Origin: a virus
Reading direction: 5' to 3' (one strand)
DNA: 64,000 bases
Virus record (IMG/VR): IMGVR_UViG_3300043639_000076
Coordinates: 3,463 to 67,462 of that record
This document shows positions 36,896-63,665 of the stretch, one piece after another. How positions within the stretch are numbered: the stretch's first letter is position 1; the number at the start of each line of letters is the position of its first letter. The notes under the pieces are model-generated. The model was not told the DNA's origin. It made no database searches and saw only the letters and a program-made list of their open reading frames with translations. Both the position numbers and the translations under genes were made by a program.

Positions 36896-36919
36896 CGGGT
36901 TTCCCTTTCATATGCCGGC

Positions 36920-37009
36920 GGCTCTTCGCATCGATCTGGACTGGTCGTCAAGTGGGATATTTCCCCTCTGCTGTTGACCCGTTGAAATAATCGTGTAGGG
37001 ATATCGCCC
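36920..37009. promoter_or_regulatory. Divergent promoter/operator region
   Basis: Two related imperfect palindromes GGGATATTTCCC (36954-36965) and GGGATATCGCCC (36998-37009); TTGAC boxes on both strands. Confidence 0.6.
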
Positions 37010-37216
37010 ATGTATGAGATCATGGAAAAAGAGTTGTTGCGAGCCATTGAGTCTTATCTCCGAGAAACCGGAGAGGCGAGTACGGCGTTTGGCAAGCGCG
37101 TGGCCGGCGATTCCCATTTGGTCCTGGATCTCCGTAATGGTCGGAGCGTCGGGATGAAGATGCGGCGCAGGATCGAGGCGGCGCTGATCACCACGCAAAG
37201 GAAAAGGGCATCATGA
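37010..37216 (+). CDS. Cro-like HTH regulator
   Basis: LL..IE.YL..TG...TAFG..VAGD..LV.DLR.GRS pattern of alphaproteobacterial phage Cro-like proteins; first gene of rightward operon. Confidence 0.75.
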   Translation: MYEIMEKELLRAIESYLRETGEASTAFGKRVAGDSHLVLDLRNGRSVGMKMRRRIEAALITTQRKRAS

Positions 37217-38412
37217 GCGAAGTAAAGACAAGGCAACCGCGCGCCAAAAAGGCGGCGGCGTCGGCCGCGCCGGCCGCGCCGGCCGTGACGCTGGACATCA
37301 AGGTCACCAATCGCGCGTTTGGTGAAACCTTGACCCGCGCCAGGGATCTGATCGCGCGGGCCACCGTGTTGCCAATTTTGAAATGCGTGGCGCTGACCGT
37401 GGGCGGCGGCTCCATGACGGTCGAGTCCAGCAACCTGGAACAGGCGTTGCGCCAGACCACGCCGATCGCCGGCATGGGATCGGGTGGCGGCTGCGTGGAC
37501 GCGGAGCGCCTGTCGGCCGTGATCGCGCGTCTGCCGCCCGATGAGGAGACGACGCTGGAATTCTCGCCGGCGGCGCTGCTGATCCGCTGTGGCGCGGTGA
37601 AGGTCACGCTGACCTCGTGGCCGCTCTCCGACTTCCCGGTGTTCGCGGTGCGTGACGAGAGGCGCACCGCTTTCGCCATGAGCGCGGCGACATTGGTGAC
37701 GGCGCTGCGGCGGGTGTCCTGGGCCATGTCGGAGGAACAGACGCGGTTCTATCTCTGTGGTGTCTCCCTGAACGTGGCCGGCGAGGGCGAGGCGGCGCGG
37801 CTGCGCGCGTGCGCGACCAATGGCAACGACATGGCGTTGGCGCGCATGCCCTTGCCGGAGGGCGCTGACGGCATGCCGGCCATCATCGTTCCGTCCCCGG
37901 CGGTCGAGGAACTGGAGAAGGTGCTGAAGAACGCCGACATCGTGGACCTGACGATCAGTGAGGCGGCGCTGGTCGCCGAGATCGGCGGCACGGTGTTCCT
38001 GACCAAACTGATCGCGGCCTCGTTCCCGAATTATGACCGCATCATCCCGGAGCCGGCGGGTCGCAAATTCTCCGTCGCCGGAGCCGAACTGGTTCGCGTC
38101 ACCCGGTTGGCGTCGCTGTTTTCGAAAAGCGAGAAGGTGAAGCCGTGGGCACGGCTGAATCTGTCGGCCGAACGCGCGGTGGTTTTCGCCGGCGAAGGCA
38201 ACGACCGGGTGGTCAGCGAACTGGCCGCGGAGACATTCTCCTTTGAAGGTGAGAAGCTGGACATCGTCGCCACCGCGTTCGCGCTGCTTGAGACGGCGAG
38301 CCGGGTGCGGGACAGGATCGCCCTGCACATGACGGCGGAAGACGCGCCCATCCTTATCCTGGATGAGAGCGATCCAGAGGTGCTTTGCATGACCAGTCCG
38401 GTGAGGGGTTGA
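37213..38412 (+). CDS. dnaN: DNA polymerase III beta sliding clamp homolog
   Basis: RATVLPILKCV, DFP, AMS.EQTRFYLCGV, ATNG..MA, KLIAASFPNYDRIIP; ~370-aa three-domain size. Confidence 0.88.
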   Translation: MSEVKTRQPRAKKAAASAAPAAPAVTLDIKVTNRAFGETLTRARDLIARATVLPILKCVALTVGGGSMTVESSNLEQALRQTTPIAGMGSGGGCVDAERLSAVIARLPPDEETTLEFSPAALLIRCGAVKVTLTSWPLSDFPVFAVRDERRTAFAMSAATLVTALRRVSWAMSEEQTRFYLCGVSLNVAGEGEAARLRACATNGNDMALARMPLPEGADGMPAIIVPSPAVEELEKVLKNADIVDLTISEAALVAEIGGTVFLTKLIAASFPNYDRIIPEPAGRKFSVAGAELVRVTRLASLFSKSEKVKPWARLNLSAERAVVFAGEGNDRVVSELAAETFSFEGEKLDIVATAFALLETASRVRDRIALHMTAEDAPILILDESDPEVLCMTSPVRG

Positions 38413-38418
38413 TGAAGA

Positions 38419-38646
38419 ATGAAGAAGCCCAGGAGCGGCGCGACGATATCGGAGATCCGGCGGTTGATCAGGATGATAGAGGAGCAGGGACCGGACACCA
38501 ACGAGCCAAGGGACTTTCCAAGGCCGTACGAGAAAGCGATCCTGATCGAGGCGTTGGATCTGCTGGCAGATATGATCGAGCGGGAACGTGGCGTCCGCAT
38601 AAAGGCCGCGGATCAGGGAGTTACCGTCCGCTCATTCCCCAGGTGA
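38419..38646 (+). CDS. Hypothetical protein
   Basis: In-operon ORF coupled to next gene. Confidence 0.55.
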   Translation: MKKPRSGATISEIRRLIRMIEEQGPDTNEPRDFPRPYEKAILIEALDLLADMIERERGVRIKAADQGVTVRSFPR

Positions 38647-38861
38647 TGGTCCGAGTCTGCCGCCAGATGGCGGTGGATTTGCGCGCGGAGCATGCCATGG
38701 GCGAGCCAGGGATTACTCTGACCGGCGAGACGTTCGGCGTCATCACCCGCGAGGAAGCGGCGATCCGGATGGACGCCCAGGCGGATCGCTGGGAACTTGA
38801 GATCAGGACCGGCGAGTTGAACCTGTATGATCGTAAGCTGATGGGGGCGGCTCCGCGATGA
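38646..38861 (+). CDS. Hypothetical protein
   Basis: TGATG and ATGA coupling. Confidence 0.5.
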   Translation: MVRVCRQMAVDLRAEHAMGEPGITLTGETFGVITREEAAIRMDAQADRWELEIRTGELNLYDRKLMGAAPR

Positions 38862-39190
38862 AGTGGCGGCTGAAGCGCACGCGTCAATGCGTCGCATGTC
38901 CATGGCGGGTGGCGACGGACCCGGCGCGCGACATTCCGAATGGTTACGATGCCGAGAAACATCGGGCGCTGGCCTTGACCATCGCCACGCCGGGTAGCTG
39001 GGTGGATAATCTCCACGTCATGGCGTGCCACGAAACGGAGGACAGCCACTGCATCGGCTGGCTGGTGAACCAGTTAGGACCAGGCAACAACATCCCTCTG
39101 CGGATCAGGATACGCGACTGCGAGAATGCCGGGAACATCCGGTTGCGCGGCAAACAGCACGGGACATTTGAGGATACGTTACCAGAATGA
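38858..39190 (+). CDS. DUF6283-like Cys/His protein
   Basis: QCxxCPWR, MACHE, CIGWL.NQL..GNNI.LR. Confidence 0.6.
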   Translation: MKWRLKRTRQCVACPWRVATDPARDIPNGYDAEKHRALALTIATPGSWVDNLHVMACHETEDSHCIGWLVNQLGPGNNIPLRIRIRDCENAGNIRLRGKQHGTFEDTLPE

Positions 39191-39531
39191 TATGCGCGCG
39201 GCCAGGATGCGGACGTGAGATTCCAACGGGACCGGGTCACAAGGAAATGGCGCATAAGCGATATTGCTCGCAGGACTGCCAGCAGAAATTCAATCGCGGC
39301 AAAGCCGACAGAGAGCGGCGCATGGCGTGGCATCTGTTCCGATATATGCAACGGAATTCGCCAAAGGCGCTGGCGAAACTGATGGCCTGGATGAACGAGG
39401 AGAAGGAACGGAATGCACGATCCAATGGAGCGTCCGAAAGAGCGGGCCTGGCATCCGGCGGCGCTGGAATTGCTGGACCGGCTGGTGCTGTCAAATATGT
39501 ACATCGGGGCGATCAGGGGCCGGATGCGTAG
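39187..39531 (+). CDS. Zinc-finger hypothetical protein
   Basis: CARPGC...YCSQDC. Confidence 0.55.
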   Translation: MICARPGCGREIPTGPGHKEMAHKRYCSQDCQQKFNRGKADRERRMAWHLFRYMQRNSPKALAKLMAWMNEEKERNARSNGASERAGLASGGAGIAGPAGAVKYVHRGDQGPDA

Positions 39532-39693
39532 CGTCCTGGGCTGGTATCCAAGCGAGCATGAGGTGCTGTGGCAAGCCGGCCGCTGGAATCGCTCGCCGCC
39601 GCCGCCGGCGGAACGACCAGCGAAACCGATGCCGGCACCGGATCGGCCGCGGCTGGGCAAGGGTGGTTTTACCATGCTGGGAGGACGCGCGCG

Positions 39694-39999
39694 GTGACCA
39701 CCTGGTGGCGGGCCGATGGGTTCCCGATCGTCCTGATCCGAGACGCGGCCTACATGTGGCGGCTGCACGACAAGTTGCGGAAACGCATGCCGGTCTGGGT
39801 GATCTACAGGCCGACGACGCGCGAATATCCAGGCCTGTGGGTGACCCGAATGCATGTCATCCTGCCCGAGGCGCGGCCCACGCGGTTCGTCATGAGCCAT
39901 GACACGCTGGAGGAGTTGCGGACCTTGCTGCCGCCGGGTCTGGTCAAAGCCGCCGCCGATCCACGCGACGTGCCAGAGATACAGGAGACGTGGTTGTGA
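39694..39999 (+). CDS. Phage hypothetical protein
   Basis: W.IY.P..EYPG.WV.R...DTLEELR..LPPGL....P.D.PEI.ETWL pattern; GTGA-coupled start with RBS GGAGG. Confidence 0.6.
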   Translation: MTTWWRADGFPIVLIRDAAYMWRLHDKLRKRMPVWVIYRPTTREYPGLWVTRMHVILPEARPTRFVMSHDTLEELRTLLPPGLVKAAADPRDVPEIQETWL

Positions 40000-40054
40000 T
40001 ATGCTCGGCTGGCGTTGACCGCGACGGGTTCCAACTGTCGGGCGGCGGAACCCC

Positions 40055-40522
40055 GTGAGCGGCCCTCACTGGTCCGACGCACCGCCCGACCGGGTGCTGA
40101 CGATGCGCCGCGGGCCATCGACCAATGCCTTGTGGATACGAGGTAACGGGCGGGCGCGGGTGCGTAGCCCAGACTACGTCAAATGGATCAACGAGGCGGG
40201 TTGGGAGATCAAGATGCAGATGGTCGGCATGCCCATCGTGGCGTGCCGGTTTAACTGCGTCATCGAGGTTCCGATATCGAAACGTGATACCGGAAACTGG
40301 GAAAAAGCCATCCTCGATCTGTTGGAACATGTCCATGTGGTCAGCAACGACGGCAACATGCACCAGTTGGAGGTGCGTCCCATGGAGCGCGCCGACGTGA
40401 TGGTCGCGCTGTGGCTTTTACCAGGGATGGGCAACGTCAGGCCCCAGGCCCCGGATCGCTACATCGGCAAGGAATGGCGTCGGCCAAAGAGCAAGGGGCT
40501 GCAATGGAAACTGCCGTTATGA
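40055..40522 (+). CDS. RusA-like Holliday junction resolvase
   Basis: PSTNALW, Y.KW, RDxGNxEKAILDLL..VVSND (variant of the RusA DxDNxxKxxxD motif). Confidence 0.65.
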   Translation: MSGPHWSDAPPDRVLTMRRGPSTNALWIRGNGRARVRSPDYVKWINEAGWEIKMQMVGMPIVACRFNCVIEVPISKRDTGNWEKAILDLLEHVHVVSNDGNMHQLEVRPMERADVMVALWLLPGMGNVRPQAPDRYIGKEWRRPKSKGLQWKLPL

Positions 40523-40949
40523 CGGATGCGACACCAGCACAACGGGCCGCGTGCCGCAACGGACAATGAAGATGCCCACGATTTACCGCTATCAAGGCCG
40601 ATGGTGGCATGGCGGCTTTAAAGCGTTCCCCGAAGAAACCGCGTGGAGCTTGCTAAAAGAATTAGCCTGGCTATTGCGCCACGGGGAATGGTGCGCCGGG
40701 TGGGAAGGATCGCAACTGATCTTCGGCTTCGGGCGCATGTGGTATGACGGGCCGCACTGGCATCTGAATGTCGGAGTGGCGTCCATTTCTCTGTCGGCAA
40801 ACTGACAATATTAAACGGAGAACTGAGATGGTCGACCCGCGCATTGCCGCAGCAGATTTTCTGTTGGTCAGTGGGCCTATATTTGCGAAAGCCGCCCGCT
40901 TTCGAAATCACAACCCTAAACGGACCACTGTCTGAAGCATTTCGTTGAG

Positions 40950-41198
40950 ATGACTACCTACGCGTGGGCGATTTTGCACCGGTCGAAGAATCTTTTGGAC
41001 GGCGACCGGTCATGGTTGGAGGGCGTGCCGGATGGCATGACACGAACCCGACTGTTCGCCACGCGGCGTGAGGCGCGAGCCTGGTGCGTGGAACAGCATG
41101 GCTGGATCAGGCGACGGCCAGACTGCCGCGCGGAGCCGCATGGCATGTTCATGCCGCGTGTCGTTCGGGTGCGAATCGAGATTGAAATTTACCCTTGA
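40950..41198 (+). CDS. Hypothetical protein
   Basis: LFATRREARAW....GWIR.RPD.RAEPHG pattern. Confidence 0.6.
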   Translation: MTTYAWAILHRSKNLLDGDRSWLEGVPDGMTRTRLFATRREARAWCVEQHGWIRRRPDCRAEPHGMFMPRVVRVRIEIEIYP

Positions 41199-41245
41199 CC
41201 AAGGTGCGTGTGAGGTGCTTACTCGCACCTCCACGGGGAGGAGCC

Positions 41246-41416
41246 ATGAGCGAACTATCACCCAGGACAGTTCATTTTACCCAGCCGCAATCTTCATACT
41301 TACGTGAGGAGTCAGACCGGCTCGGGATAACCGTGTCGGAACTGATACGACGTATCATCGACCAGTTCAGAGGAAATAAAAATGCCAGACGGGATCGTAA
41401 CGAAGCGGCGAACTAA
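41246..41416 (+). CDS. Ribbon-helix-helix (CopG-like) regulator
   Basis: RBS GGAGGAG; RTVHFT....YL...S.RLGITVSELIRRIID. Confidence 0.75.
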   Translation: MSELSPRTVHFTQPQSSYLREESDRLGITVSELIRRIIDQFRGNKNARRDRNEAAN

Positions 41417-42299: not shown

Positions 42300-42661
42300 T
42301 GGAGGGGTTCGATTCCGCCTTCATCGAGATCGGCCTGAAGGACGAACTGACCGCGATCAACGCCATGGCGGCGGCGCGGGTCACCATCATGGCGATGCTG
42401 CGGTATCCGTTCGCGGAGATCTCGCTGGTGATCGGCGGCTTCGATGCTGATCCGCGCGAGGTTTGGGATATTCCGGAAGCGAAAGACTATTTCGAAATGT
42501 TCATCGGCGCGATGTTCGTTCTCAACGCGCCTCATGTCAGGGAGTGGCGGCTGGACAAGGCCACCATGGGTGTCGTCGCCATGTGTTGCGGTTTCGGAAA
42601 GATCGTGGGGCGTGACCCAAAGACCGGTGCTTACGATATTCGGATCGCCTGGAAGGAATGA
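42299..42661 (+). CDS. DUF1817/CRR6-like protein
   Basis: GFDADPREVWDIPEAKDYF resembles the DPRELxEIPEVR motif. Confidence 0.45.
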   Translation: MEGFDSAFIEIGLKDELTAINAMAAARVTIMAMLRYPFAEISLVIGGFDADPREVWDIPEAKDYFEMFIGAMFVLNAPHVREWRLDKATMGVVAMCCGFGKIVGRDPKTGAYDIRIAWKE

Positions 42662-43379: not shown

Positions 43380-43392
43380 TATGGAGGTTTCG

Positions 43393-45449: not shown

Positions 45450-45451
45450 TC

Positions 45452-48849: not shown

Positions 48850-48867
48850 CAGGGTTTGTCTTTGGTT

Positions 48868-48895
48868 AAAACGGCAGGTTTCCTGCCGTTTTTTT
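48868..48895 (+). terminator. Rho-independent terminator after VapE
   Basis: AAAACGGCAGG-TTT-CCTGCCGTTTT plus T run. Confidence 0.8.
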
Positions 48896-48899
48896 GTTT

Positions 48900-49075: not shown

Positions 49076-49132
49076 TTGAACCGGCCTCGTATCGCGCCTT
49101 GCATCACGTTAAAATTCAATTTAGAAAAACGA

Positions 49133-50940: not shown

Positions 50941-50963
50941 TTTTGGTTGGTCGATCGAAACCA

Positions 50964-50994
50964 GGGGGGTGGGGAAACCCGCCCCCTTTTTTTT
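50964..50994 (+). terminator. Rho-independent terminator with GAAA tetraloop
   Basis: GGGGGTGGG-GAAA-CCCGCCCCC followed by T8. Confidence 0.8.
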
Positions 50995-52076: not shown

Positions 52077-52092
52077 GCGACTGGTAACCGTC

Positions 52093-54297: not shown

Positions 54298-54488
54298 GGT
54301 GGGAGGGCCGGCGTCGGAAGAGTTTACGGTTCGCCGCCAAACGCCGAGTTTCGTTCTTTAAGCTGTTGTTCTTATTATTCCATCCCAAGAAACGAGACGA
54401 GACGATTGTGCATTCCAGTAAAAGGGAACCCTCCTACAATGGATAACGCGGCGGGATAGACGCCGCGTCATCCATGGGAGACATCACC

Positions 54489-55214
54489 TTGAGAAAGTTA
54501 CTCTACGCGGCCACGGCTCTGAGTGCCATGGCCTTTGTGCAGCCCGCGTCGGCGGTGTTGCAGATCAGCGCCGACATCAACGGCGCGCTGTTTAGCTGCC
54601 AGGATCAGGCGGCATGCGACACCAACGTCACGCCTGGCATCCTGTCCATCGCCGATCAGACCATCGGCGGCGTGCAGTTCCTGGGATCGGCGCAGACCCA
54701 GGTCATCGGCGCGACCAACTCACTCAACACCTCGACTTTTCAGGTCAACAACCTGACCGGCGGCACGGTGCCGATCACGGTGGCGATCTCGGGCACCAAC
54801 TTCCAGGGTCCGGTGCTGGCGTTCTCGGCGTCCGGTTCAGGGACGTTCCAGACCGCCGATGGGTCATCGGCGACCTTGACGTTCTGGGGTAGCGCGCTGA
54901 ACGAGCAAGGCGCGGACACGCCCACCGATCTGCCGGGTGTGTTGCTGGCGACGATGACGGAGGTGGCGACGGGCGACACGGATTCGTTCAACCAGGACTT
55001 CAGCGGGCCGTTCGCGGGACCGGCGCTCTACTCGATGAGCCTGGGAACGTCGGGTTTCCTGACGGCTGGCGGGTCGCTGGTCGGTCGGTCACAGGCCATC
55101 GTCACCCGTGAGGATGTGCCGGAACCGGCCAGCCTCGCGATCCTGGGTGCCGGTCTGGTGGGTCTGGGGCTGACGCGCCGCTTCCGGCGCGATAGCTTTG
55201 AGGTGGCGGCATGA
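54489..55214 (+). CDS. PEP-CTERM sorting-domain surface protein 1
   Basis: Signal peptide (MRKLLYAATALSAMAFVQPASA; TTG start after GGGAGA); Ser/Thr/Gly-rich body; VPEPASLAILGAGLVGLGLTRRFRR. Confidence 0.9.
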   Translation: MRKLLYAATALSAMAFVQPASAVLQISADINGALFSCQDQAACDTNVTPGILSIADQTIGGVQFLGSAQTQVIGATNSLNTSTFQVNNLTGGTVPITVAISGTNFQGPVLAFSASGSGTFQTADGSSATLTFWGSALNEQGADTPTDLPGVLLATMTEVATGDTDSFNQDFSGPFAGPALYSMSLGTSGFLTAGGSLVGRSQAIVTREDVPEPASLAILGAGLVGLGLTRRFRRDSFEVAA

Positions 55215-56011
55215 ACAGGGCGACAACCTTTCACGCGGCCATCGTCGGAGCCATGGGTGTCCTCGCCGTCGCCCTGGCTCCGACTCCGGTCGCCGCGCAT
55301 CTCGTGTTCCAGGGTGGTATCGATCTTGGTGGCACCGGGTTGGGCGCGGTCGATACGATTTTGACCATGAATGGTCAGGGATCGGAGACTGAGGAGTCGG
55401 GCAAGGTATCGTGGAACGGCACGACCAACGTCGTCGTGGGCGATCCCACGGGCGTCGGCGGGCCGTTGGCGGGCGGGGCGTATACCCTGGCTGGGTCCAC
55501 GACGATGACCGGGCAGAACCACACGGTGACCATGACGCAAACCGGCTGGACCGCGGGGGAGGGGCTTGGCATCGTGTTCAACCCGGCGGAACCCGGCCCG
55601 GTGGGTGGGGCGGCGAACGCGATCACGTTGCGCCAGATGACCATGACGATCTACGCGTCAGACGGCTCGGTGCAGTTCACCGCGCCGTGGTCGGAAGGGC
55701 CGTTGACCTTGCTGGCGGTCGATCCTGGGACCGGCAATACCGGTTATCTGTTCACCCTGGATCAGGCCGAGACGAACGCGCTCAACCATGTCACGGGGAT
55801 CGGGCCTGATAGCCGCGTGGGCCTGTTCGCCTACGTCACCGATGCCACGGGCGGTAACGAGACGTTCTTTGGCACCGTGATCCAGGCTGGTCTTTGCGAC
55901 GACTGCACGATCACCCCGGTGATCGTGGACACGCCGGAACCGGTGTCCATGGCGTTGCTGGGATCGGGGCTGGTCGGCCTCGCCGTGGCGCGTCGGCGTC
56001 GCCGTGCCTGA
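55211..56011 (+). CDS. PEP-CTERM sorting-domain surface protein 2
   Basis: Signal peptide (...AVALAPTPVAA); TPEPVSMALLGSGLVGLAVARRRRRA. Confidence 0.9.
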   Translation: MNRATTFHAAIVGAMGVLAVALAPTPVAAHLVFQGGIDLGGTGLGAVDTILTMNGQGSETEESGKVSWNGTTNVVVGDPTGVGGPLAGGAYTLAGSTTMTGQNHTVTMTQTGWTAGEGLGIVFNPAEPGPVGGAANAITLRQMTMTIYASDGSVQFTAPWSEGPLTLLAVDPGTGNTGYLFTLDQAETNALNHVTGIGPDSRVGLFAYVTDATGGNETFFGTVIQAGLCDDCTITPVIVDTPEPVSMALLGSGLVGLAVARRRRRA

Positions 56012-56161
56012 TGGTTTGGCCCGGTTGGCGGCGCTCGTGCTGTTCATCTGGGCGGTGATTTGCCTCGCGGTCTGGACCGTGTGGTGACGAGGTTGGCCTG
56101 GATATCCCCACCCCCTCCAGGCCGACAGGCGATGGTCTATCATCGTCACGACCCCCAACTG

Positions 56162-56209
56162 GACCCGGTTTCCGCCTCTTGCCAGAGGGCTGGAGCCGGG
56201 TCTTTTTTT
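56162..56209 (+). terminator. Terminator after PEP-CTERM genes
   Basis: GACCCGGTTTCC...GGAGCCGGGTC stem followed by T7. Confidence 0.65.
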
Positions 56210-57386
56210 AGTTCGACCAGCGGTCGCCGGGAATCACCCCCAGCACCGTGGTGCTGTTCATTTCCTTGCTGAACACTTTCAGGGTCTGCGGTTTGGTGGA
56301 CAGTTTCGGATTGAGCGCGGCCCAGGCCGCGAAATCGGCGAGGATAGTGGCGTGGTATTGCTCGAGTGGAGAGAGGACCGGTGATGGCGGTGGGTCAGGC
56401 GTGGGCATGGGTGGGATCGGCGGTGGCGGCTGTTCTGGTGGCGGTGGCGACGGCGACGGTGGTGGTGATGCTCCTGATCCAAGGAAAGCGATGGGAGCGA
56501 GGTCGAGGACCGGCCGATCCGCGAGAGTGACGATGTTCGACGGGGTCACTGGTCCCGACACAGCCTGTGATCCAAACACATTGATGTTAGTATATGTAAC
56601 GGGCACGTTAGTCGCGTTCCAGAGGCTGGTGCCACTGGAGCGGTCGTTGATGATGGTGTCGCCGTCGATCGTGGCGCTGGCGTTGGCGATCAGGTTGCCT
56701 TCCTCGCCGTAGGCGATGATGGCGGGGTTCTGCGTGTTCGGGCCTTGCTGGATGATGTTGTTGGCGATCGTGGCGTTACCGCCGTTCGGCAGGTCGATGG
56801 AGTAGCTGGCGCTGCCGGCGTTGTCGAAGATTCGGTTGCCGGTGATGACGTTGTTGGTGGCGCGGGATTTGACCTCGTGGCCGATCACGGCGTCGTGGAT
56901 ATAGCTGTTGGTCAACGTGAAAGTGTTGAGCGGGCCTACGTAGATGTTGTGGGTATGGCCGTCGCCGCCGATCCCGTTGTGGCTGAATTCCGAGTTGGTG
57001 ATGGTGATGTTGCCGGCGGGATCGGCGGCGGCGAGGATGCCGTCCTGGTTGTCGTGGATGAAGACGTTGTCCAGCGTGAGGTTGCCGCCCTGGTAGCGAA
57101 TGCCGGCCCCGTTGGCGTCGGGCACGGTCACGCCGGATATGTCGAAGCCGCTGATGGTGACGTTGCCGCTCTCGGTGATGTAGGCCTTGCCATCCGGCGG
57201 TTGCGCCGTGGCGAGAAGCTTCACCCAGCCGCCTTGGGCGATCAGCGTCAGGTCGTGGTCGATCTGGAGCCAGTCGTTGGTGTAGGTGCCGGCATTGACG
57301 GTGATGGTGTCGCCGGCGGATGAGGCGGCGACGGCGGCTGAGATGGTGGCGTAGGCTTGGTTTTGTCCGACCGAGAGGATGGCCAT
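56208..57386 (-). CDS. Right-handed parallel beta-helix (pectin-lyase-like) protein with Pro-rich linker
   Basis: LSVG...YATISAAVAA..AGDTI.V.AGTY; NGAGIR; HDNQDGIL; HNIYVG; GHEVKSRA; SIDLPNGG. Confidence 0.85.
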   Translation of the reverse strand: MAILSVGQNQAYATISAAVAASSAGDTITVNAGTYTNDWLQIDHDLTLIAQGGWVKLLATAQPPDGKAYITESGNVTISGFDISGVTVPDANGAGIRYQGGNLTLDNVFIHDNQDGILAAADPAGNITITNSEFSHNGIGGDGHTHNIYVGPLNTFTLTNSYIHDAVIGHEVKSRATNNVITGNRIFDNAGSASYSIDLPNGGNATIANNIIQQGPNTQNPAIIAYGEEGNLIANASATIDGDTIINDRSSGTSLWNATNVPVTYTNINVFGSQAVSGPVTPSNIVTLADRPVLDLAPIAFLGSGASPPPSPSPPPPEQPPPPIPPMPTPDPPPSPVLSPLEQYHATILADFAAWAALNPKLSTKPQTLKVFSKEMNSTTVLGVIPGDRWSN

Positions 57387-57423
57387 TTGGTGGTTCCTTG
57401 TGTGGTCGGGTCGGAGGTGTCGC

Positions 57424-57951
57424 ATGTCGAAGCTGAGTGATCCAGACGTGGCTGAAATCGTACTGGCGCTGAAGGCGAAATATGACATCGACGTACTGGT
57501 CGAGACGGGCACGTTCGAAGGTGACAGCACTCTCTGGGCGGCGGAACGATTTCGTCACGTCTTCACCATCGAGGTGTTCTCGGACTTTCAGGATTTGGCC
57601 CGCGAACACTGCGCCAGTCATGCCAATGTGACGTTTCTTTCCGGCAACACGCGGTTCGTCCTGCCGTTCGTCGCGTCGGTGCTGACGGGGCCGTCGATGT
57701 TCTGGCTGGATGCCCACTCGGCACCCGGCCTGTTCGGCGAGGCGGATGACTGGCCGGTCATGGAGGAACTGGCGGTGATCGAGCAATCACAATTCCATCA
57801 TGTGATTCTAATCGATGACGCGCACTGTTTTATGCCGGGGACGCCGCATCCGGCGTGTCCGCCGCTCGGCGCGGTGGAAAAATGGGCGCTGTTGTCTGGC
57901 TACGACTGCGCGGTCAGGGGCGACGTGATCGTGCTGACGCCGGTCGAGTGA
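57424..57951 (+). CDS. SAM-dependent methyltransferase-fold protein
   Basis: VETGTFEGDS, VFTIE, FWLDAH, P.MEEL..I, ILIDDA; RBS GGAGG. Confidence 0.8.
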   Translation: MSKLSDPDVAEIVLALKAKYDIDVLVETGTFEGDSTLWAAERFRHVFTIEVFSDFQDLAREHCASHANVTFLSGNTRFVLPFVASVLTGPSMFWLDAHSAPGLFGEADDWPVMEELAVIEQSQFHHVILIDDAHCFMPGTPHPACPPLGAVEKWALLSGYDCAVRGDVIVLTPVE

Positions 57952-58015
57952 ATTTTTGAATCAGGTGCAAAAACCGGGGGTCGGATTTTTGAATCAGGTG
58001 CAAAAACCGGGGGTT
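57950..58015 (+). repeat. 33-bp repeat cluster A (2 tandem copies)
   Basis: G(A/G)ATTTTTGAATCAGGTGCAAAAACCGGGGGT(C/T) x2. Confidence 0.95.
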
Positions 58016-58046
58016 GCTTTTAAGCGACCGGCTTAAAAGCAACCCC
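58010..58046. repeat. Perfect 16-bp inverted repeat with 5-nt loop
   Basis: GGGGTTGCTTTTAAGC-GACCG-GCTTAAAAGCAACCCC. Confidence 0.9.
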
Positions 58047-58070
58047 ATTTTCGGATTTTCCAGGCCTTTT

Positions 58071-58130
58071 TTTCGGCGGTTTTCGGCGGTTTTCGGCGGT
58101 TTCAGGCGGTTTCAGGCGGTTTCAGGCGGC
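58071..58130 (+). repeat. 10-bp tandem repeat x6
   Basis: TTTCGGCGGT x3, then TTCAGGCGG(T/C) x3. Confidence 0.95.
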
Positions 58131-58382
58131 GCTCGGACGCCGGCCGGCGACCCGGCGGATCGGCGGCGGCGGGTTGTCGAGGTGCAGCGCGGCCAGCCGC
58201 TCGACCCAGGCCACGACATCCTCCGGCGGCGCGGTGCGGCCGTCGCACCAGTAGATCGCCGTCGTGTGACCGATCTGGATCTGTTCGGAGAGCGTCGCGC
58301 GGGTCCAGCCGACCGTGTCCATGGCCGCGCGCAGCCGTTCACCGAGTGTCGGTGGCGTCGGTGTCTTCCTTGGCTTTTTCAT
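58122..58382 (-). CDS. XRE-like HTH protein, paralog 1
   Basis: LRAAMDTVGWT..TLS..I.I..T...W.DG...PP..V.AW..RLA..H..NPPP. Confidence 0.72.
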   Translation of the reverse strand: MKKPRKTPTPPTLGERLRAAMDTVGWTRATLSEQIQIGHTTAIYWCDGRTAPPEDVVAWVERLAALHLDNPPPPIRRVAGRRPSAA

Positions 58383-58578
58383 CGTTGATCTCCTGGATCA
58401 GATCCCAGTGGTGGATGCGCGCGGTGTAGCGGCCATTCCGGCCGTAAAAGGCGACCTCGCCTTTCGTGTTGATGCCGGCGAACCGGTTGGTCCCCGTGGC
58501 GGTGGTTTCGCATTCGATGGTGATGCGCTCGCCGCGGCGGTTCAGGTATGAACCGCCGACTTTCAGCGTGACTGGCAT
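58339..58578 (-). CDS. Hypothetical protein
   Basis: LKVG..Y.NR.GE.I.I...NG.Y....DL pattern. Confidence 0.6.
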   Translation of the reverse strand: MPVTLKVGGSYLNRRGERITIECETTATGTNRFAGINTKGEVAFYGRNGRYTARIHHWDLIQEINDEKAKEDTDATDTR

Positions 58579-58581
58579 GGC

Positions 58582-59520
58582 TCATCCCCGCAGGATCTTG
58601 ACCGCGTCCACGGTCGTCAGGTTACGCATCAGCCCGTCGTCGCCCATCTGTTGGATGACGTGGACGGATTTGTCGTGGCGTTTCATGTCCTTCTGACCCC
58701 AGGCGATGATGTCACCGGGCTTGCAGGGGAGGCGCATGATGCCGGCCTCGCCGACGCGGCCGATCCACTCGCCCCAGTTGTACGTCAGCTTGCCGGCGGC
58801 GGCGTCGAGCGTGACGGTGGCGCACCAGGGCTTGCCATCGCGGCGGGAATTGTAGGCCGCGGTTTCCCGCTCCCAGTAGCCGCTTTCCAGGCGTCCCGCT
58901 CCCAGCGCGACCAGCGCCGCCTTTTTCTCGGCCGCTTCGATGGCGGCGGCTTCGGCTGAGATCTTGTCGGCTTCCACCTTCTCCTCGCGCAGCCGTGGCA
59001 GGGCTGCTTCGATGGCGGCGTTGTTCCTGACTTCGATGGCGTTGGTCATGGCGCTGAACGCCGCCTCGAGACGCGCCCAGATCGGATCCGCGCGACGGTC
59101 GGCGGTGACCCTCCGGTCATACATCCCTGGACGCGGAATGTGCGGCGGCTTCCAGTTGGTCAGTTCGCCCAGTGCCGCGAAGGTGTCGGGATCGCGGATG
59201 AGCCGCTGGTATTCGATCGGCTCGGCGGCGCGCGTCGCCGCGATGGCGGCTTCGATCTCGGCCGTGATCTCGTTCCAGCCGGCTTCGAAGTAGGCCTTGT
59301 CGGCCGCGACGGCGGCGATGACCGCCTCGATGGTCGGTGCGGCGATGTTGCGCGCCTGGCAGACCGCTGACCCGTCATTGGACAGGTCGAGCGCGGCGAC
59401 GACATCGGGCCAGGCGTCGCCAAAATCCGCCGGCGCGGCGTCGAGGACGGCGGTCTGGCCAATCTCGTGGCCGGCCAACAGCGCGGCGCGGCGGTCGATG
59501 TTGCGGAGCGTGATCTTCAT
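58582..59520 (-). CDS. Hypothetical protein (312 aa)
   Basis: Long ORF; C-terminal YNSRR..KPW.A...PGDIIA.GQKD; AGGGAAACCC leader. Confidence 0.75.
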   Translation of the reverse strand: MKITLRNIDRRAALLAGHEIGQTAVLDAAPADFGDAWPDVVAALDLSNDGSAVCQARNIAAPTIEAVIAAVAADKAYFEAGWNEITAEIEAAIAATRAAEPIEYQRLIRDPDTFAALGELTNWKPPHIPRPGMYDRRVTADRRADPIWARLEAAFSAMTNAIEVRNNAAIEAALPRLREEKVEADKISAEAAAIEAAEKKAALVALGAGRLESGYWERETAAYNSRRDGKPWCATVTLDAAAGKLTYNWGEWIGRVGEAGIMRLPCKPGDIIAWGQKDMKRHDKSVHVIQQMGDDGLMRNLTTVDAVKILRG

Positions 59521-59611
59521 GGCAGGGTTTCCCTCTGGGGATTAATCGTCCGCGGGATGCGGACCATCTCGCTGGGTATCCTGGACATCCCAGGCATACC
59601 CGGCGGCATGG

Positions 59612-59818
59612 TCAGGCGTCGTGATCGATGAGCGCGCCAATGGCCTCGTTATTGGCGTGTGCCTGGGCGCGGTAGGCCTTCCTGATCCAGGCCTGGGCGT
59701 CCGCTCTGGTTTCGAAGGTGGCGCAGTTCTGAGCGGGAAGGTTGAAGGGTTTGCGCCGCACCATCCAGGGCTTGTTCGTGGGTTCCTGGAGGTGATGGAT
59801 GAGGTAGCTGTAGGTCAT
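59612..59818 (-). CDS. Hypothetical protein
   Basis: F.TR.DA.AWI motif; in leftward operon. Confidence 0.55.
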   Translation of the reverse strand: MTYSYLIHHLQEPTNKPWMVRRKPFNLPAQNCATFETRADAQAWIRKAYRAQAHANNEAIGALIDHDA

Positions 59819-59821
59819 GGT

Positions 59822-60088
59822 TCAGGCCTTCTGGCTTTTGATGGCGCGGATGATCGCGCCCAGTTCGTCATAGATCGCGACGACCGACCGGACCCGCTGG
59901 CTGTTCTGTTCCTGGGCCAGCGAGAAGGTGGAGGGGGTCTGGATGTAATAGTCGCGGCCGTTCGGCGCGGCGTCCTGCAAGGTCAGAGCGGCCTCGTGGA
60001 GCGCGTTGCGTGCCCGCATCAGACCTTCGATCAGGTCGTCCTTGTCGGAGCCGTTGGAGTGGATCGTGGGGACTGCGATGGTGGTCAT
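59822..60088 (-). CDS. Phage hypothetical protein
   Basis: PTIH.NG....L, APNGRDYY; AGGGAAACCC leader. Confidence 0.7.
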   Translation of the reverse strand: MTTIAVPTIHSNGSDKDDLIEGLMRARNALHEAALTLQDAAPNGRDYYIQTPSTFSLAQEQNSQRVRSVVAIYDELGAIIRAIKSQKA

Positions 60089-60147
60089 GTCGGGTTTCCC
60101 TCTGGGATGGTGGAGTAGCCCGCTCCTCGTGGAGCGGGCCGGGTTGG

Positions 60148-60378
60148 TCAGTCGATGGTGGGTTTGACTTCCTGGATGAGGCCGTTGTCCCAGTGCGGGT
60201 AAACCAGGGGGCCGGTGGCATCGATGGCGCGGAACAAGCGGGCCAGATCGTCGTCCTTGTTGAAGGCGCTGCCGGCGACCCGGTTGACCGCGGTGTAGGG
60301 GTTGGTGGCCATGGCGAAGGCAATCTCTTTCGCGATGTAGACGAGTTCGCGAACAGCGTGGAGTTCCTGGGCGTTCAT
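60148..60378 (-). CDS. Hypothetical protein, first gene of leftward operon
   Basis: AGGGAAACCC leader; downstream of predicted promoter. Confidence 0.65.
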   Translation of the reverse strand: MNAQELHAVRELVYIAKEIAFAMATNPYTAVNRVAGSAFNKDDDLARLFRAIDATGPLVYPHWDNGLIQEVKPTID

Positions 60379-60424
60379 GATCGGGTTTCCCTTCTGTGTG
60401 GCGGCCGGTTCGTCTCGGCCAGTG

Positions 60425-60500
60425 GTGATTAATTAGTCCCGTGATCTCACAAAGGCAAGCGATATTTTGTGATCATCGTGATTTAATCTGTCACAAAAAC
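60425..60500. promoter_or_regulatory. Divergent promoter/operator region
   Basis: Minus-strand TTGCCT-N17-TAATTA enclosing palindrome GTGATCTCAC; inverted TTTTGTGA...TCACAAAA; AT-rich. Confidence 0.6.
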
Positions 60501-60601
60501 GCATGCCAGCCATGCGCGCCGGCATTTGGTCTGGCGTTGCTTTCGGATCCGGCTTCGTGGTCATGGTACGAGGTCTGAATGTTCATGAGGGAAACCCGGA
60601 G

Positions 60602-60790
60602 ATGATGATGTCGATGATGATGTTGACGTTGACGCGAGAAGAGAGGGTCGAGGCGGCGCGGCTGATGTATGAGCGGCGCGCGGAGCGGCTGGTGGGGCAT
60701 CATATGCCGGCCTGGGAAGGTCTTTCGGATATGCAGCGCGAGCGGCTGATCCAGGTCGAGGCGGATCGCATGGCGCTGGTGCGGTCGTGA
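60602..60790 (+). CDS. Hypothetical protein
   Basis: GAGGGAAACCC leader before ATG run; PAWEGLS..QRE motif. Confidence 0.55.
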   Translation: MMMSMMMLTLTREERVEAARLMYERRAERLVGHHMPAWEGLSDMQRERLIQVEADRMALVRS

Positions 60791-61197
60791 GGTTGTTTCC
60801 GCGTAGCGAGGCATGGCCGGCGGCGGTTTCGGCCGAGGCGGTGTTGGAGGCCTTCGACCGGGCGCGCGCCGCTGGCGTTAATTCGCCGGGGCTGCGGCTC
60901 GGCGATTTTAATTTTCGGCCAGCGCCGCCGGCCGGCCGCAATGCCGGCGCGATTTACGTGACCCGGCGGCGCATTTACCTGGGCAAGATCCTGTACGGCC
61001 GTTTCACGCCATCGTCGGATTGCGACCAGGTGACGACCGACGCGGTGGTGGCGACGGTCGCCGACCCCCAGGCGGCGGCGGTGGCTTATGGCCGCGACAC
61101 CGGGCGGTGTTCCTGTTGTGGTCGGTTGCTGACAGACCCCGAGAGCGTAAGAGTGGGAATCGGCCCGATCTGCGCGGGTCGATATTTCGGGGAGTGA
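60787..61197 (+). CDS. DUF6011-domain protein
   Basis: YG..TGRCSCCGRLLTDPESV.VGIGPIC. Confidence 0.8.
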   Translation: MRLFPRSEAWPAAVSAEAVLEAFDRARAAGVNSPGLRLGDFNFRPAPPAGRNAGAIYVTRRRIYLGKILYGRFTPSSDCDQVTTDAVVATVADPQAAAVAYGRDTGRCSCCGRLLTDPESVRVGIGPICAGRYFGE

Positions 61198-61202
61198 CAA
61201 TA

Positions 61203-61415
61203 ATGGGGGATCTGTCCTGGGTTGATCTTCGCTGCCGCTGCGGCGCGGATCACGTCATCGCGCTGGCACCAGGGTTTGACCCCAGAGGGGAGGGGGGCGG
61301 AACGCTTACTCTGTTCGACCCGCCGGCGATCAAGGACCGGGCATGGTGCGTCGATTGCTGGCGCGCTTCGTTTGTTTCGGTTAGTGCCGCGAGAGGGGCG
61401 GCTGTCCTGCCCTGA
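61203..61415 (+). CDS. Small zinc-binding protein
   Basis: CRCG...WCVDCW. Confidence 0.55.
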   Translation: MGDLSWVDLRCRCGADHVIALAPGFDPRGEGGGTLTLFDPPAIKDRAWCVDCWRASFVSVSAARGAAVLP

Positions 61416-61435
61416 TCTCTGTCGGGGGTTTTGGG

Positions 61436-61990
61436 TTGGTCGTCAGTCGGTCGCGCCAGAGGGGGGATCCTCGTTCTGGGTCTGACCTGGGGCCGGGGCT
61501 GCGCCGGCGACCGGTGCGTGACCGATTTGGCGAGGTGTTGCGGGAGCCTGACATCGAGGTCAGCGATCGGGCGGCGGATCCGGACAATCCCAACCGCCGG
61601 CTGCGGCGGGCCTATCGCGTGGACTCGGTCGAACTGCTGCGCCGCGCCGGCACGCTCGGTCCACGCGAGGTCGAGGCGGCGGAAGAACTGCGCGCGCACC
61701 TGGAGCGGCTGGTCGCATCCGGTGGCGGGGACTTCGCTCGTGTTTCGTTGTCGGGCTACCCGGTCGAGCCGATCAGCGACAGCCAGCTACGATCGTCCAG
61801 GCACCTGCGTGAGGCCCAGGACGCGCTCGGCATGGTGACGTGGCCGGCGGTGTTGTGGGTTTGTCTGGGCGGTACGGTGCGGGGATATTGCGAGCGGGAG
61901 TTGATCGACCGCCGGCGTGGCACCGCGCGCGTGATAGAGGGAATGCAACGGCTGGCGGTTTACTTTTACGGGGACGGGGTCACGGGATGA
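61436..61990 (+). CDS. DUF6456-like transcriptional activator/antiterminator (start uncertain)
   Basis: L.R.GTL..REV.AAE.LR...E, A.DALG.....VL.VCL, ER, L..L..F C-terminal HTH pattern. Confidence 0.6.
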   Translation: MVVSRSRQRGDPRSGSDLGPGLRRRPVRDRFGEVLREPDIEVSDRAADPDNPNRRLRRAYRVDSVELLRRAGTLGPREVEAAEELRAHLERLVASGGGDFARVSLSGYPVEPISDSQLRSSRHLREAQDALGMVTWPAVLWVCLGGTVRGYCERELIDRRRGTARVIEGMQRLAVYFYGDGVTG

Positions 61991-62742
61991 GTATTCGGGT
62001 TGTTTGCTGGTTTTCCTGCGGCGACGCATCGGCCGTGGCGACCAAGTTGGCCCTGGCCAAATACCTCGATGATGAGGTCGCCGTGGCGCGCTGCGTGGTG
62101 CCGGAAGAGCATCCGGACAATGACAGATTCGCGCGCGACTGCGCCGAATGGTTCGGTGTCGAGGTTAATGATCTGAAGAGCGTCGAGTATGCTTCATGCG
62201 ATGAGGTGTGGCGCAAACGCCGGTATATGAGCGGCGTGTTGGGGGCGATCTGTTCGGTGGAAATGAAAAAGGTCGTGCGGCATGCGTTCGAACGCGTGTG
62301 GCATCCGGACGTGCAGGTTTTCGGCTACACCGCGGAAGAGGCTGACAGGGCTGATCGGTTTCGCTCGCAGAACCCCGATGTTGTTTTGGAATGCCCGCTG
62401 ATCGATGAGGGGCTTTCGAAGGAAGATTGCCACGCCATCGTGCGTCGCGCCGGCCTGGAAGTGCCCGAGATGTATCGATTGGGCTACCCCAACGCGAACT
62501 GTATTGGTTGCGTTAACGCACAGAGTCCAACTTATTGGAATCATGTTAGGAAGACATTCCCAGACATTTTCGACCAGCGCGCGCGTCTGAGCCGGGAACT
62601 CGACGTGCGTTTGGTGAAGGGGACGCTCGGCGATCGGGAGCGGCTGTTCCTGGACGAACTGGATCCGGAACTCGGCCGCGACGTGGCGATGCCGGCGATG
62701 GAATGCAGTTTGCTTTGTTACATGGCCGAACAGAAGTTGTGA
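61987..62742 (+). CDS. PAPS-reductase-like (PP-loop) protein
   Basis: VVCWFSCG.ASAVA, EEHPDN.RF, C..EMKK, FGYTAEE..R..RF, PLI, MY.LGY.NANCIGCV. Confidence 0.82.
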   Translation: MSIRVVCWFSCGDASAVATKLALAKYLDDEVAVARCVVPEEHPDNDRFARDCAEWFGVEVNDLKSVEYASCDEVWRKRRYMSGVLGAICSVEMKKVVRHAFERVWHPDVQVFGYTAEEADRADRFRSQNPDVVLECPLIDEGLSKEDCHAIVRRAGLEVPEMYRLGYPNANCIGCVNAQSPTYWNHVRKTFPDIFDQRARLSRELDVRLVKGTLGDRERLFLDELDPELGRDVAMPAMECSLLCYMAEQKL

Positions 62743-62830
62743 GTTTTTGGGTCAGGTGCAAAGACCTGGTCTAATTGGTCAAATTGAAAACCCCGCCGAG
62801 AGGCGGGGTTTTTGAGTCAGGTGCAAAGCG
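62742..62830 (+). repeat. Repeat cluster B (2 core copies flanking a terminator)
   Basis: TTTTTGGGTCAGGTGCAAAG and TTTTTGAGTCAGGTGCAAAG. Confidence 0.9.
62787..62813. terminator. Bidirectional Rho-independent terminator
   Basis: AAAACCCCGCC-GAGA-GGCGGGGTTTTT between convergent genes. Confidence 0.85.
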
Positions 62831-62835
62831 GTGGG

Positions 62836-63117
62836 TCAGCGGAGGTCTTTTTCCTTCCAAATCGCGTAGGCATGCCGCCCCTCGACCCGGTAAATTCCGC
62901 CTTGCTCGGTCTGGGCGATCAGGTACTTGCCCGACGCGCCTTTGACCTCGACCCAGACGCGTTCGGACCATTGGCCGCGGCTTTGGCAGACCTTGATCAT
63001 GTCGCCGGGGGCGATCATGGCCAGTTCGCGCGGCGTGGGGGCTTCGAAGGTGTCGGGATGGTCAATGTGCATTTGCTGTGCGTCGGTCAGTCCGCGCATG
63101 ATGGGGTAGGTGGGCAT
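62836..63117 (-). CDS. Hypothetical protein
   Basis: HPDTFE.P...L..I.PGD..KV...ER.WVEV motif; AGGGAAACCC leader. Confidence 0.7.
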   Translation of the reverse strand: MPTYPIMRGLTDAQQMHIDHPDTFEAPTPRELAMIAPGDMIKVCQSRGQWSERVWVEVKGASGKYLIAQTEQGGIYRVEGRHAYAIWKEKDLR

Positions 63118-63132
63118 GGTCTGGGTTTCCCT

Positions 63133-63348
63133 TCAGGCCGGGTTGAAACGGGTCGAGATGCGGGGGGCGGGGTATCTGCGATGCTCGCGGGCCAGCGCTT
63201 TCATCCAGGTGGCGACAGCCTTGGGCACCGGGAGCCGGCCGGAGGCCCACCGGCGCACATTGGTTTCCTCGACCTCCAGCCGTGTGGCCAGGCCGCGCAT
63301 GGTCCAGCCGATATCGGTGAGGCAGTCGATGAATTCATGGTTGTTCAT
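63133..63348 (-). CDS. XRE-like HTH protein, paralog 2
   Basis: EF..CL..IGWT.RGLA..L.V.ET.VRRW.SG..PVP..VA.W..ALA..H...PAP; AGGGAAACCC leader. Confidence 0.8.
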   Translation of the reverse strand: MNNHEFIDCLTDIGWTMRGLATRLEVEETNVRRWASGRLPVPKAVATWMKALAREHRRYPAPRISTRFNPA

Positions 63349-63380
63349 GGTGTGGGGTTTCCCTCCGTTGGTGGTGCCGT

Positions 63381-63409
63381 GTTTTGCCGCGCCTTGCGGC
63401 ATATGTCAA
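63381..63409 (-). promoter_or_regulatory. Promoter with palindromic operator candidate upstream of HTH paralog 2
   Basis: Minus-strand TTGACA (63404-63409) with TGCCGC-N5-GCGGCA in the spacer. Confidence 0.55.
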
Positions 63410-63621
63410 GCCTCGCGTGCCTGTCCGCGCAGATCTGGCGGTGGATTTTCGTCCATTTGTTGGGCGAGCCGGCGCAGCCATAGTTCGACGTTGACCGGCA
63501 CCTTGCGCTCGCCGCTTTTCCAGCGCCGGAACCGGCGCTGATCGACGTCGAGCATTTGCATCAGCCACGACTCGCGCAGCGGCAAAACGTAGAGGCAATC
63601 GCGAAACTCTTCAGGTGTCAC
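63406..63621 (-). CDS. XRE-like HTH protein, paralog 3
   Basis: GTG start after AGGGAAACCC; MTPEEF..CL.......L...L.V..R.FRRW.SG...VP..V..WL..LA......PPP. Confidence 0.75.
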   Translation of the reverse strand: MTPEEFRDCLYVLPLRESWLMQMLDVDQRRFRRWKSGERKVPVNVELWLRRLAQQMDENPPPDLRGQAREA

Positions 63622-63665
63622 GGTTTGGGGTTTCCCTCTCGAAACGCTGGCCGCGAGTCGATAGT

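Follow-up and report, generated by a model that had tools for sequence, protein, structure and literature searches.

The 10-nucleotide sequence AGGGAAACCC, here called the tag, occurs eight times in the phage genome under study (G000), always a few nucleotides upstream of a start codon. The stretch analysed, hereafter the window, is 64,000 nt long. It covers bases 3463-67462 of one virus record (67,462 nt; linear and 86% complete according to CheckV). We propose that the tag is a start-associated sequence (SAS) akin to that of Cluster K mycobacteriophages, and that, with companions resembling the ESAS of those phages, it forms a standard, lineage-specific head for translation initiation. We give this reading a probability of roughly 0.55.

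The occurrences had been listed in an earlier note on this DNA, whose eight coordinates and strands all proved exact. Dinucleotide-preserving shuffles of the genome (n = 100) contain 0.13 copies on average (standard deviation 0.39, largest number 2) as against the observed eight, and the order-0 expectation for the genome is 0.16, so the over-representation that the note implied is real. No additional copy lies in the 3462 nt of the genome that the window leaves out. As also described there, every copy lies 1-6 nt upstream of a start codon, with gaps of 1, 4, 3, 4, 4, 5, 6 and 6 nt in order of position, and on the strand of its open reading frame (ORF), at 8/8 sites. The start codon is ATG in seven cases and GTG in one, and the ORFs comprise 49-312 codons with a G+C content at third codon positions of 0.70-0.92. 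Beyond the ten letters the eight sites cannot be aligned. The 7-mers of the motif are the top enriched words 5' of gene starts in G000.

The tag is selective with regard to the genes that it precedes. Our gene set of 83 genes, including their starts, comes from our own crude codon-bias caller; by these calls the tag is found at none of the 31 structural and lysis genes, versus eight of the 52 others. Our script flagged seven of the latter, and the eighth is a gene with a GTG start at 63621, which the caller had put further downstream. Instead of the tag, 20 of the 31 structural and lysis genes have GGAG, GAGG or AGGA, in keeping with the ordinary ribosome-binding sites (RBSs) ascribed to them before. 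All eight tagged genes are preceded by a non-overlapping gap of at least 15 nt, and where a leftward gene overlaps or adjoins the one before it (-4 to +3 nt), it has no tag. Seven copies are found in the only two sizeable leftward units, one running from 36895 to 35234 and the other at the right end, and the last one heads a rightward unit divergent from the leftward gene at 60378. The replication genes are devoid of the exact 10-mer, one of them having the variant GGAGAAACCC, and those that start after gaps use other RBSs. The restriction to non-structural genes claimed earlier thus holds, but the term 'phage-wide' was too broad for a tag confined to leftward accessory operons and one divergent rightward gene. 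The products of the tagged genes are mostly orphans. Two are the paralogous small helix-turn-helix (HTH) proteins recognised in the note, which match PHROG 4779, 'transcriptional regulator' (E 1e-7), and weakly HTH_31.

All copies but one are on the minus strand. Copy 1 (36897..36906, minus) lies 1 nt before the ATG of a 49-aa ORF (36895-36746) and heads the leftward operon 36895->35234, which diverges from the replication genes; its orthologous sites are exact in relatives G001 and G041 and read AGGGAAAACC in G002. Copy 2 (59525..59534, minus) stands 4 nt before the ATG of a 312-aa ORF (59520-58582) that has no Pfam or PHROG match. Copy 3 (60092..60101, minus) precedes by 3 nt the ATG of an 88-aa ORF (60088-59822), whose G001 orthologue has a plain GGAGG site in place of the tag. 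Copies 4 and 5 belong to the divergent control region 60379-60601: copy 4 (60383..60392, minus) is 4 nt before the ATG of its first leftward gene, a 76-aa ORF (60378-60148), and copy 5 (60588..60597), the sole plus-strand copy, is 4 nt before the ATG of its first rightward gene, a 62-aa ORF (60602-60790) whose G041 counterpart has AGGGCAACCC. Copy 6 (63123..63132, minus) is located directly 3' of the TGA of the upstream HTH gene and 5 nt before the ATG of a 93-aa ORF (63117-62836). It is exact at the orthologous sites of G041 and locus L136, and homologues of the 93-aa protein amount to five proteins, on short contigs. Copy 7 (63355..63364, minus) is 6 nt before the ATG of a 71-aa HTH protein (63348-63133), and copy 8 (63628..63637, minus), just downstream of a 33-bp repeat array at 63664-63793, is 6 nt before the GTG of its 71-aa paralogue (63621-63406). 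The earlier statement that tagged genes are often first in an operon therefore applies to part of the set: the copies at 36897, 60383 and 60588 head divergent units and that at 63628 follows a repeat array, whereas others, such as the one at 63123, are internal.

Relatives were found via the portal protein, and 37 loci were collected in addition around the beta-helix gene (56208-57386), a neighbour of the right-end cluster. Five of these 37 anchor loci, representing four distinct records, contain the exact 10-mer. The richest is G041, a 38-kb genome estimated to be 65% complete, with ten exact copies, all ten on one strand and 0-7 nt before an ATG, and none of the reversed-pattern control. At L136, all five exact copies precede an ATG, as do the variants AGGGCAACCC and AGGGAAATCC. 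L135/L163 has one exact copy. L154 is G001, a 72-kb genome colinear with G000 and ~65-90% identical to it in nucleotide sequence over the aligned blocks. Two of its three exact copies precede starts and the third is inside an ORF of 3688 codons; its start-associated variants are CGGGAAACCC, AGGGGAACCC, AGGGACACCC and GGGGATACCC. L128 and L130 have variants only, again before starts (AGAGAAACCC, AGAGAAACTC, GGGGATTACCC, AGGGAAAGACCC, AGGGCAACCC and GGGGCTTCCC). Altogether, the 45 curated sites, variants included, come from seven records and have 24 protein families behind them. Four of the eight tagged G000 genes have no homologue in G001, and the region between the beta-helix gene and the rightward operon harbours different SAS-headed small genes in each phage. 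When G001 (L101, 29792-30679) is compared with window 36746-36906, three extra genes (~870 nt) prove to be inserted precisely between the tag and the 49-aa start codon; the operon head keeps its tag but has a different first gene.

Other searches for tagged relatives returned little. The 312-aa protein and the HTH paralogue led to no related loci, the 88-aa protein to one distant locus and the helicase to distant loci only. Among the candidates from scans of viral contigs for a two-copy pattern, only G041 proved to be truly related; the matches in L169 and L170 come from coding tandem repeats, and that in L171 is due to chance. L167 (record G044, a 54.6-kb viral contig) was set aside as an unrelated phage with its own longer repeat. 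At ~2700-4700 of that locus, on the minus strand, three copies of ATGG + AGGGAA[A/G]CCC + C + ATGG precede ORFs of 67, 128 and 378 codons, and this may be a separate SAS-like system in which the 10-mer is present by coincidence. As for the literature, the matches listed for the 10-mer are animal or mammalian-cell studies, with no phage among them.

In 24 cross-record pairs of orthologous sites, which are not independent of each other, the motif is 93% identical versus 30%, about the random level, for the 15 nt upstream. The three-way alignment of the site at 36897 likewise has the motif kept and the flanks drifted. Because of this difference in identity, the alignments indicate that selection acts on the ten letters themselves, irrespective of the gene that follows. 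In the alignment of the 45 sites, the CCC columns are the best conserved, one C being invariant and the other two at least 90% conserved; G2 is invariant as well, and the letters between the G run and CCC vary in sequence and in length (3-5 nt). The only word before tagged starts that resembles a Shine-Dalgarno (SD) sequence is the AGGGA within the motif. Judging from the general anti-SD sequence, pairing with the anti-SD would not account for the conservation of CCC.

The surroundings of the motif have features in common as well. At the 24 exact start-associated sites, the spacer to the start measures 0-7 nt, positions -1 and -2 of the motif are purines, and the three letters 3' of it are mostly G, A and C. 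ATG is the start codon at 23 of these 24 sites, which are partly orthologous and hence not independent, versus 59 of 79 other predicted starts. Their leaders are rich in C and A (C 41%, G 20%, versus C 28%, G 30% for other genes).

Two companion elements are found upstream of the tag. Element A (59535..59604, minus), an ESAS-like module of ~65 nt, directly abuts copy 2. It consists, in order, of hairpin 1 (59574-59601), the linker CAGCGAGATGG, hairpin 2 (59547-59565), CGAT, an A/C-rich stretch and CCCAG, followed by the tag. All ten regex matches of element A in the records (eight of them distinct) lie directly before an SAS or a variant, ahead of at least five gene families, and hairpin 1 has compensatory changes at four pairs. 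Element B (60118..60140, minus) is a GC-rich hairpin (...GCTCC-N4-GGAGC...) with a tetraloop, 16 nt upstream of copy 3. It recurs 13-40 nt before the tag in six records, and three of its pairs have compensatory changes. Both elements are located before SAS sites only. More generally, the 45 sites have upstream regions that are on average more structured than their mononucleotide-shuffled counterparts (mean z -1.56, 17/45 below -2). A promoter scan of window 56000-64000 returned 0 sigma-70-like sites, and elements A and B are without recognisable promoter hexamers. These elements might insulate or process the units that they head.

In the light of these features, we envisage that this clade of phages puts the tag before non-overlapping genes of leftward accessory or early operons and before one divergent rightward gene. 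A typical unit would be made up of hairpin module A or B (in a subset of cases), a G-poor, C/A-rich leader, two purines, AGGGAAACCC, 0-7 nt (often GAC) and AUG. AGGGA and the preceding purines would provide the SD contact with the anti-SD, judging from the general sequence of the latter. Since AAACCC is unable to pair with the anti-SD and yet is at least as conserved, it is presumably read by something else. CCC might fold back on GGG and thereby gate the SD, a sequence-specific RNA-binding factor might recognise it, or both. Initiation would then follow the same pattern at every tagged gene, regardless of which gene shuffling has placed there, and the whole set could be turned up or down jointly.

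Is the tag a hairpin in itself? The best fold of the isolated 10-mer is a GGG/CCC stem with an AAA triloop at -1.4 kcal/mol. The earlier note had proposed a GNRA tetraloop; a weak fold of GGG on CCC is indeed possible, but the triloop is preferred, and a GNRA loop suits variants with GCAA or GGAA but not those with GACA or GATA. Of the 111 cells of the 45-site alignment, 92.8% are paired, nearly all of them invariant, with one compensatory cell and three A.C mismatches. The compensatory cell is an A-U pair in L130 (AGAGAAACTC), whose orthologues have G-C (G041) and A.C (L128). The RNAalifold consensus of the element-B alignment includes the mini-hairpin. Taken together, the folding predictions make a mini-hairpin in the tag possible.

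Several observations weigh against the SAS reading. The mini-hairpin is marginal, and in context the G run is nearly always predicted to be paired but with varying partners, either its own CCC or an upstream CCC(A). Covariation in relatives, to which the earlier note had looked for evidence of the stem, is not significant, 62 of 500 shuffles reaching the observed value. Degenerate tags are tolerated in L128, L130 and G001 (AGAGAAACCC, GGGGATTACCC, AGGGAAAGACCC, GGGGCTTCCC). The tag is absent from the more distant relatives G004, G006, G007, G008, G010, G042 and G043, and most other anchor loci lack it too, the rest having scattered copies with one mismatch; the tag is therefore not indispensable. 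Ordinary RBSs of G000 often have A/C-rich spacers that end in CC(C), as in GGAGAAACCC and GGAGCGACCC, and because of this likeness part of the motif may be generic. Finally, six-frame searches of the genome revealed no CsrA (PF02599), T4 RegA, T4 RegB (PF10715), S21, Hfq or cold-shock domain, and Pfam and PHROG scans revealed no RNA-binding domain among the non-structural proteins. Of the translational regulon put forward in the earlier note, what stands is an RBS element under selection, independent of the gene behind it and shared by one set of non-structural genes; the RNA operator proposed with it lacks a candidate reader among RegB, RegA, CsrA, Hfq, S21 and cold-shock homologues.

CsrA/RsmA sites expose a GGA core in a hairpin loop. 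The AGGGA of the motif does contain GGA, but its G run is in the stem of the predicted mini-hairpin. No Rfam family matched at its gathering score, the two sub-threshold matches being unrelated to the sites, and no tRNA was found. In crude k-mer counts, no other start-associated word was seen in the tag-negative relatives.

A simpler explanation is that the tag is a plain good RBS with no special reader, consisting of an SD and an unstructured A/C spacer, that is copied with gene cassettes or provides microhomology for their exchange. Its uniformity would then reflect recombination history and selection for initiation efficiency, with no regulon. The gene turnover described above fits such a cassette, in particular the SAS-headed small genes that differ from phage to phage between the beta-helix gene and the rightward operon, and the 870-nt, three-gene insertion in G001 exactly between the motif and the start of the 49-aa gene. 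So does a strain that is ~3% different (contigs of run X4), in which a whole 68-aa ORF is swapped for 147 other letters (window 59617-59815) and the whole 76-aa ORF and its tag for 309 other letters (window 60151-60427). These differences are cassette-wise replacements. No difference is listed in the three motif copies covered in that strain, which is uninformative, as less than one was expected. The A/C-rich spacers ending in CC(C) of ordinary RBSs and the degenerate variants of L128, L130 and G001 also speak for a plain RBS. However, flanks at random level next to a motif kept at 93% bespeak purifying selection rather than recent shared copying. Moreover, CCC is conserved as strictly as the G run, the gap-started replication genes of the same phage manage with other RBSs, and the junctions of the X4 replacements do not coincide with the motif. 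We therefore view the plain RBS as a possible explanation, albeit on the whole an unlikely one.

The earlier note had also considered that the 10-mer might be a routine RBS context in the host lineage. Among 185,579 species genomes, the portal protein is best matched by an Acetobacteraceae metagenome-assembled genome (MAG) contig (55% identity), followed by Methylobacterium (51%) and Inquilinus (43%). The family of the MAG, represented by 31 genomes with ~140 Mb in total, has 143 copies of the 10-mer versus 84 of the reversed control, and the Methylobacterium, Inquilinus and Orrella genomes have 3, 4 and 3 copies, which is the control level. This corresponds to ~1 copy per Mb in the 34 bacterial genomes of candidate lineages versus 119 per Mb in the phage. 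The 10-mer is thus no routine RBS context in these 34 genomes, although the true host may differ from them.

The tag might also act at the DNA level, as an orientation-specific, stoperator-like operator at which a phage repressor, for instance a small HTH paralogue, blocks transcription through the units. The asymmetry of the site and its strict correlation with the direction of transcription are what one would expect of such operators, and three paralogous HTH genes and repeat arrays are found in the same region. Nevertheless, this model leaves unexplained why the spacing to the start is so tight (0-7 nt at 24/24 exact start-associated sites), why ATG is favoured and why the motif supplies the only SD-like word. 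The tag is also found on operon-internal genes, such as that at 63123, and if operators are sought, the 33-bp repeats or the inverted repeats at 60430-60500 make better candidates. We hold a DNA operator to be very unlikely.

As for the RegB-like cleavage signal suggested in the earlier note, it would be a site where an endoribonuclease inactivates or matures these mRNAs at the RBS. T4 RegB cuts GGAG in the SD of early mRNAs, and the same logic could apply to a motif whose middle is predicted to be single-stranded and A-rich and whose upstream hairpin modules could be processing or stability elements. However, GGAG is absent from the motif, no RegB homologue (PF10715) is present in the six frames, and the non-structural proteins scanned have no nuclease domain, bar a weak sub-threshold match to RusA, a DNA junction resolvase. 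This makes cleavage at the tag highly improbable.

Pairing of all copies with a phage antisense RNA is barely credible: copies 60588 (plus) and 60383 do form an 18-nt, 83% inverted repeat 195 nt apart and the non-coding left genome end contains an 8-nt complement, but no complement of at least 8 nt lies in a predicted hairpin loop in transcript sense, no Rfam family matches, and the GGTTTCC of the terminator at 48868-48894, examined as a source of such an RNA and rejected, forms a stem tip that is not conserved in relatives.

The genomic setting of the tag deserves description in its own right. The G+C content of G000 is 59-65%. A long rightward block contains the structural and lysis genes, and 3' of it a rightward replication block encodes a beta clamp, AAA_24, DUF669, an SF1 helicase, Prim-Pol and VapE. 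This block is followed by two PEP-CTERM genes, and the right end is occupied by leftward and rightward units of small genes between repeat arrays. The PEP-CTERM motifs are at the C-termini of two tandem proteins (window 54474-56011; Pfam, E 3e-6 and 9e-5) and point to a Gram-negative host with an exosortase, on the basis of these domain matches. A DUF6011 domain is found in the second gene of the rightward unit (window 60841-61197, E 2e-15). The capsid region of G000 matches Pseudomonas, Burkholderia and other phages at only 60-80%, and megablast of window 56000-64000 returned no close relatives in the annotated phage collection. The phage is a siphophage of an uncultured soil clade, and its lineage appears to be outside the actinobacteriophages.

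Repeats of several types surround the small-gene units. A same-strand repeat of 31-33 bp (core CAGGTGCAAA) is present in eight copies in three clusters (window 57948-58011, 62739-62834 and 63664-63793), which flank the leftward units and the HTH paralogues. Units of 10 bp (TTTTCGGCGG and variants, with six overlapping 20-nt copies) are arrayed in tandem at window 58070-58129. The CAGGTGCAAA repeats and the TTTTCGGCGG array resemble arrays of iterons or operators. Inverted repeats of the type TTTGTGA...TCACAAA, found around 60430-60500 within the divergent control region 60379-60601, are likely operators of a genetic switch. The terminator after a ParB-like gene (window 50960-50990) has the tag-like GGGGAAACCC at its tip, with a long G/C stem and then a T run; the copy is in sense rather than antisense orientation. 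Lastly, G-rich repeat arrays (GCAGAGGGGCA and relatives) are present at both contig ends (window 63940-64000, and 1-870 of the genome, outside the window), and the assembly probably breaks inside the end array. Given this break and the incompleteness of the record (86%), further tag-headed genes may exist beyond the right contig end.

Repeated signals near phage genes are known from several systems, and we consider the SAS reading against each of them. The targets of T4 RegB and the operators of RegA make the RBS regions of early genes a common point of post-transcriptional control. The tag resembles them in that RBS regions would serve as a shared control point, but it lacks GGAG, and RegB and RegA have no homologue here. 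Stoperators are DNA sites for a repressor, short, asymmetric and numerous, with an orientation that follows transcription; they do not include the SD, and their spacing to start codons is not fixed. The tag likewise comes in many short asymmetric copies oriented with transcription but, unlike stoperators, it is located at the SD with a tight spacing to the start. Stoperators of L5 and other Cluster A mycobacteriophages are mentioned alongside SAS in PMC3203893. A Gram-negative case is that of Citrobacter phage Mordin, where a 26-bp repeat before eight genes was called 'reminiscent of SAS' by its authors (PMC4611695). The Mordin repeat is, like the tag, a conserved sequence upstream of the starts of hypothetical genes, but it is much longer and unrelated in sequence.

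The closest counterpart is the SAS of Cluster K mycobacteriophages, described in 2011 as a 13-nt sequence with an internal AGGAG and 11-19 copies (PMC3203893). The tag shares nearly all of its descriptive features. According to the passages on SAS in that paper, both are short asymmetric repeats in one orientation, a few nucleotides before starts and at the RBSs of non-structural genes only. Both favour ATG, precede different gene families in relatives, have a longer upstream element in a subset of cases and exhibit an outer GGG...CCC symmetry. The Cluster K sequence is conserved past the pairing with 16S rRNA, and the same may apply to the CCC of the tag, judging from the general anti-SD sequence. 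Unlike the Cluster K sequence as given there, the tag is 10 nt rather than 13 nt long and has no internal AGGAG, so that the G run itself would be the SD, and there are 8-10 copies per record rather than 11-19. The ESAS is described in the same source as an imperfect inverted repeat with a SigA-like promoter (PMC3203893); the companions found here differ from it in being hairpins with compensatory changes and no recognisable -35/-10 hexamers. The phage lineage is also different, with an HK97-type capsid nearest to those of proteobacterial phages and with PEP-CTERM genes. The tag does not match the Cluster K consensus when up to two deviations are allowed. Because the sequence is unmatched and there is no internal AGGAG, the tag is an analogue, not a homologue, of the Cluster K SAS.

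SAS/ESAS-like motifs were also reported for Cluster EF Microbacterium phages, with the consensus GGGAAAGGACCCC and an AGGA core (Jacobs-Sera et al. 2020, PMC7302621). From what is reported on these motifs, both systems have about ten unusually well-conserved copies at RBS positions, each EF copy with an upstream companion. The EF consensus begins and ends as the tag does, and the L128/L130 variant AGGGAAAGACCC(C) amounts to it with one G fewer. Nevertheless, the phages and the host phylum are unrelated, and the likeness is possibly one of convergence. It is tempting to speculate that the GGG-(A-rich loop)-CCC shared by the tag and the SAS of Clusters K and EF, in unrelated phages of unrelated hosts, embodies one mechanism, a tiny hairpin-type signal that the 30S initiation complex reads directly or that a conserved host factor recognises. 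Phages would in that case own a private class of RBSs that keeps shuffled early genes translated or silenced together, independently of SD strength. We rate this idea as rather improbable. If there is a common reader behind GGG...CCC, phages would have a general means of jointly controlling shuffled early genes at the ribosome, and the tag would serve as an expression element that is compact and portable. Papers of 2024-25 (PMC11373665, PMC12699233) still describe the function of SAS as unknown. For a signal known since 2011 and still without a mechanism, the clade described here is a well-documented further example rather than a new principle. What the clade adds is a minimal 10-nt SAS-type tag in which the G run would itself be the SD, the presence of two upstream hairpin modules, and a natural series from the invariant copies of G000 and G041 to the degenerate ones of L128, L130 and G001.

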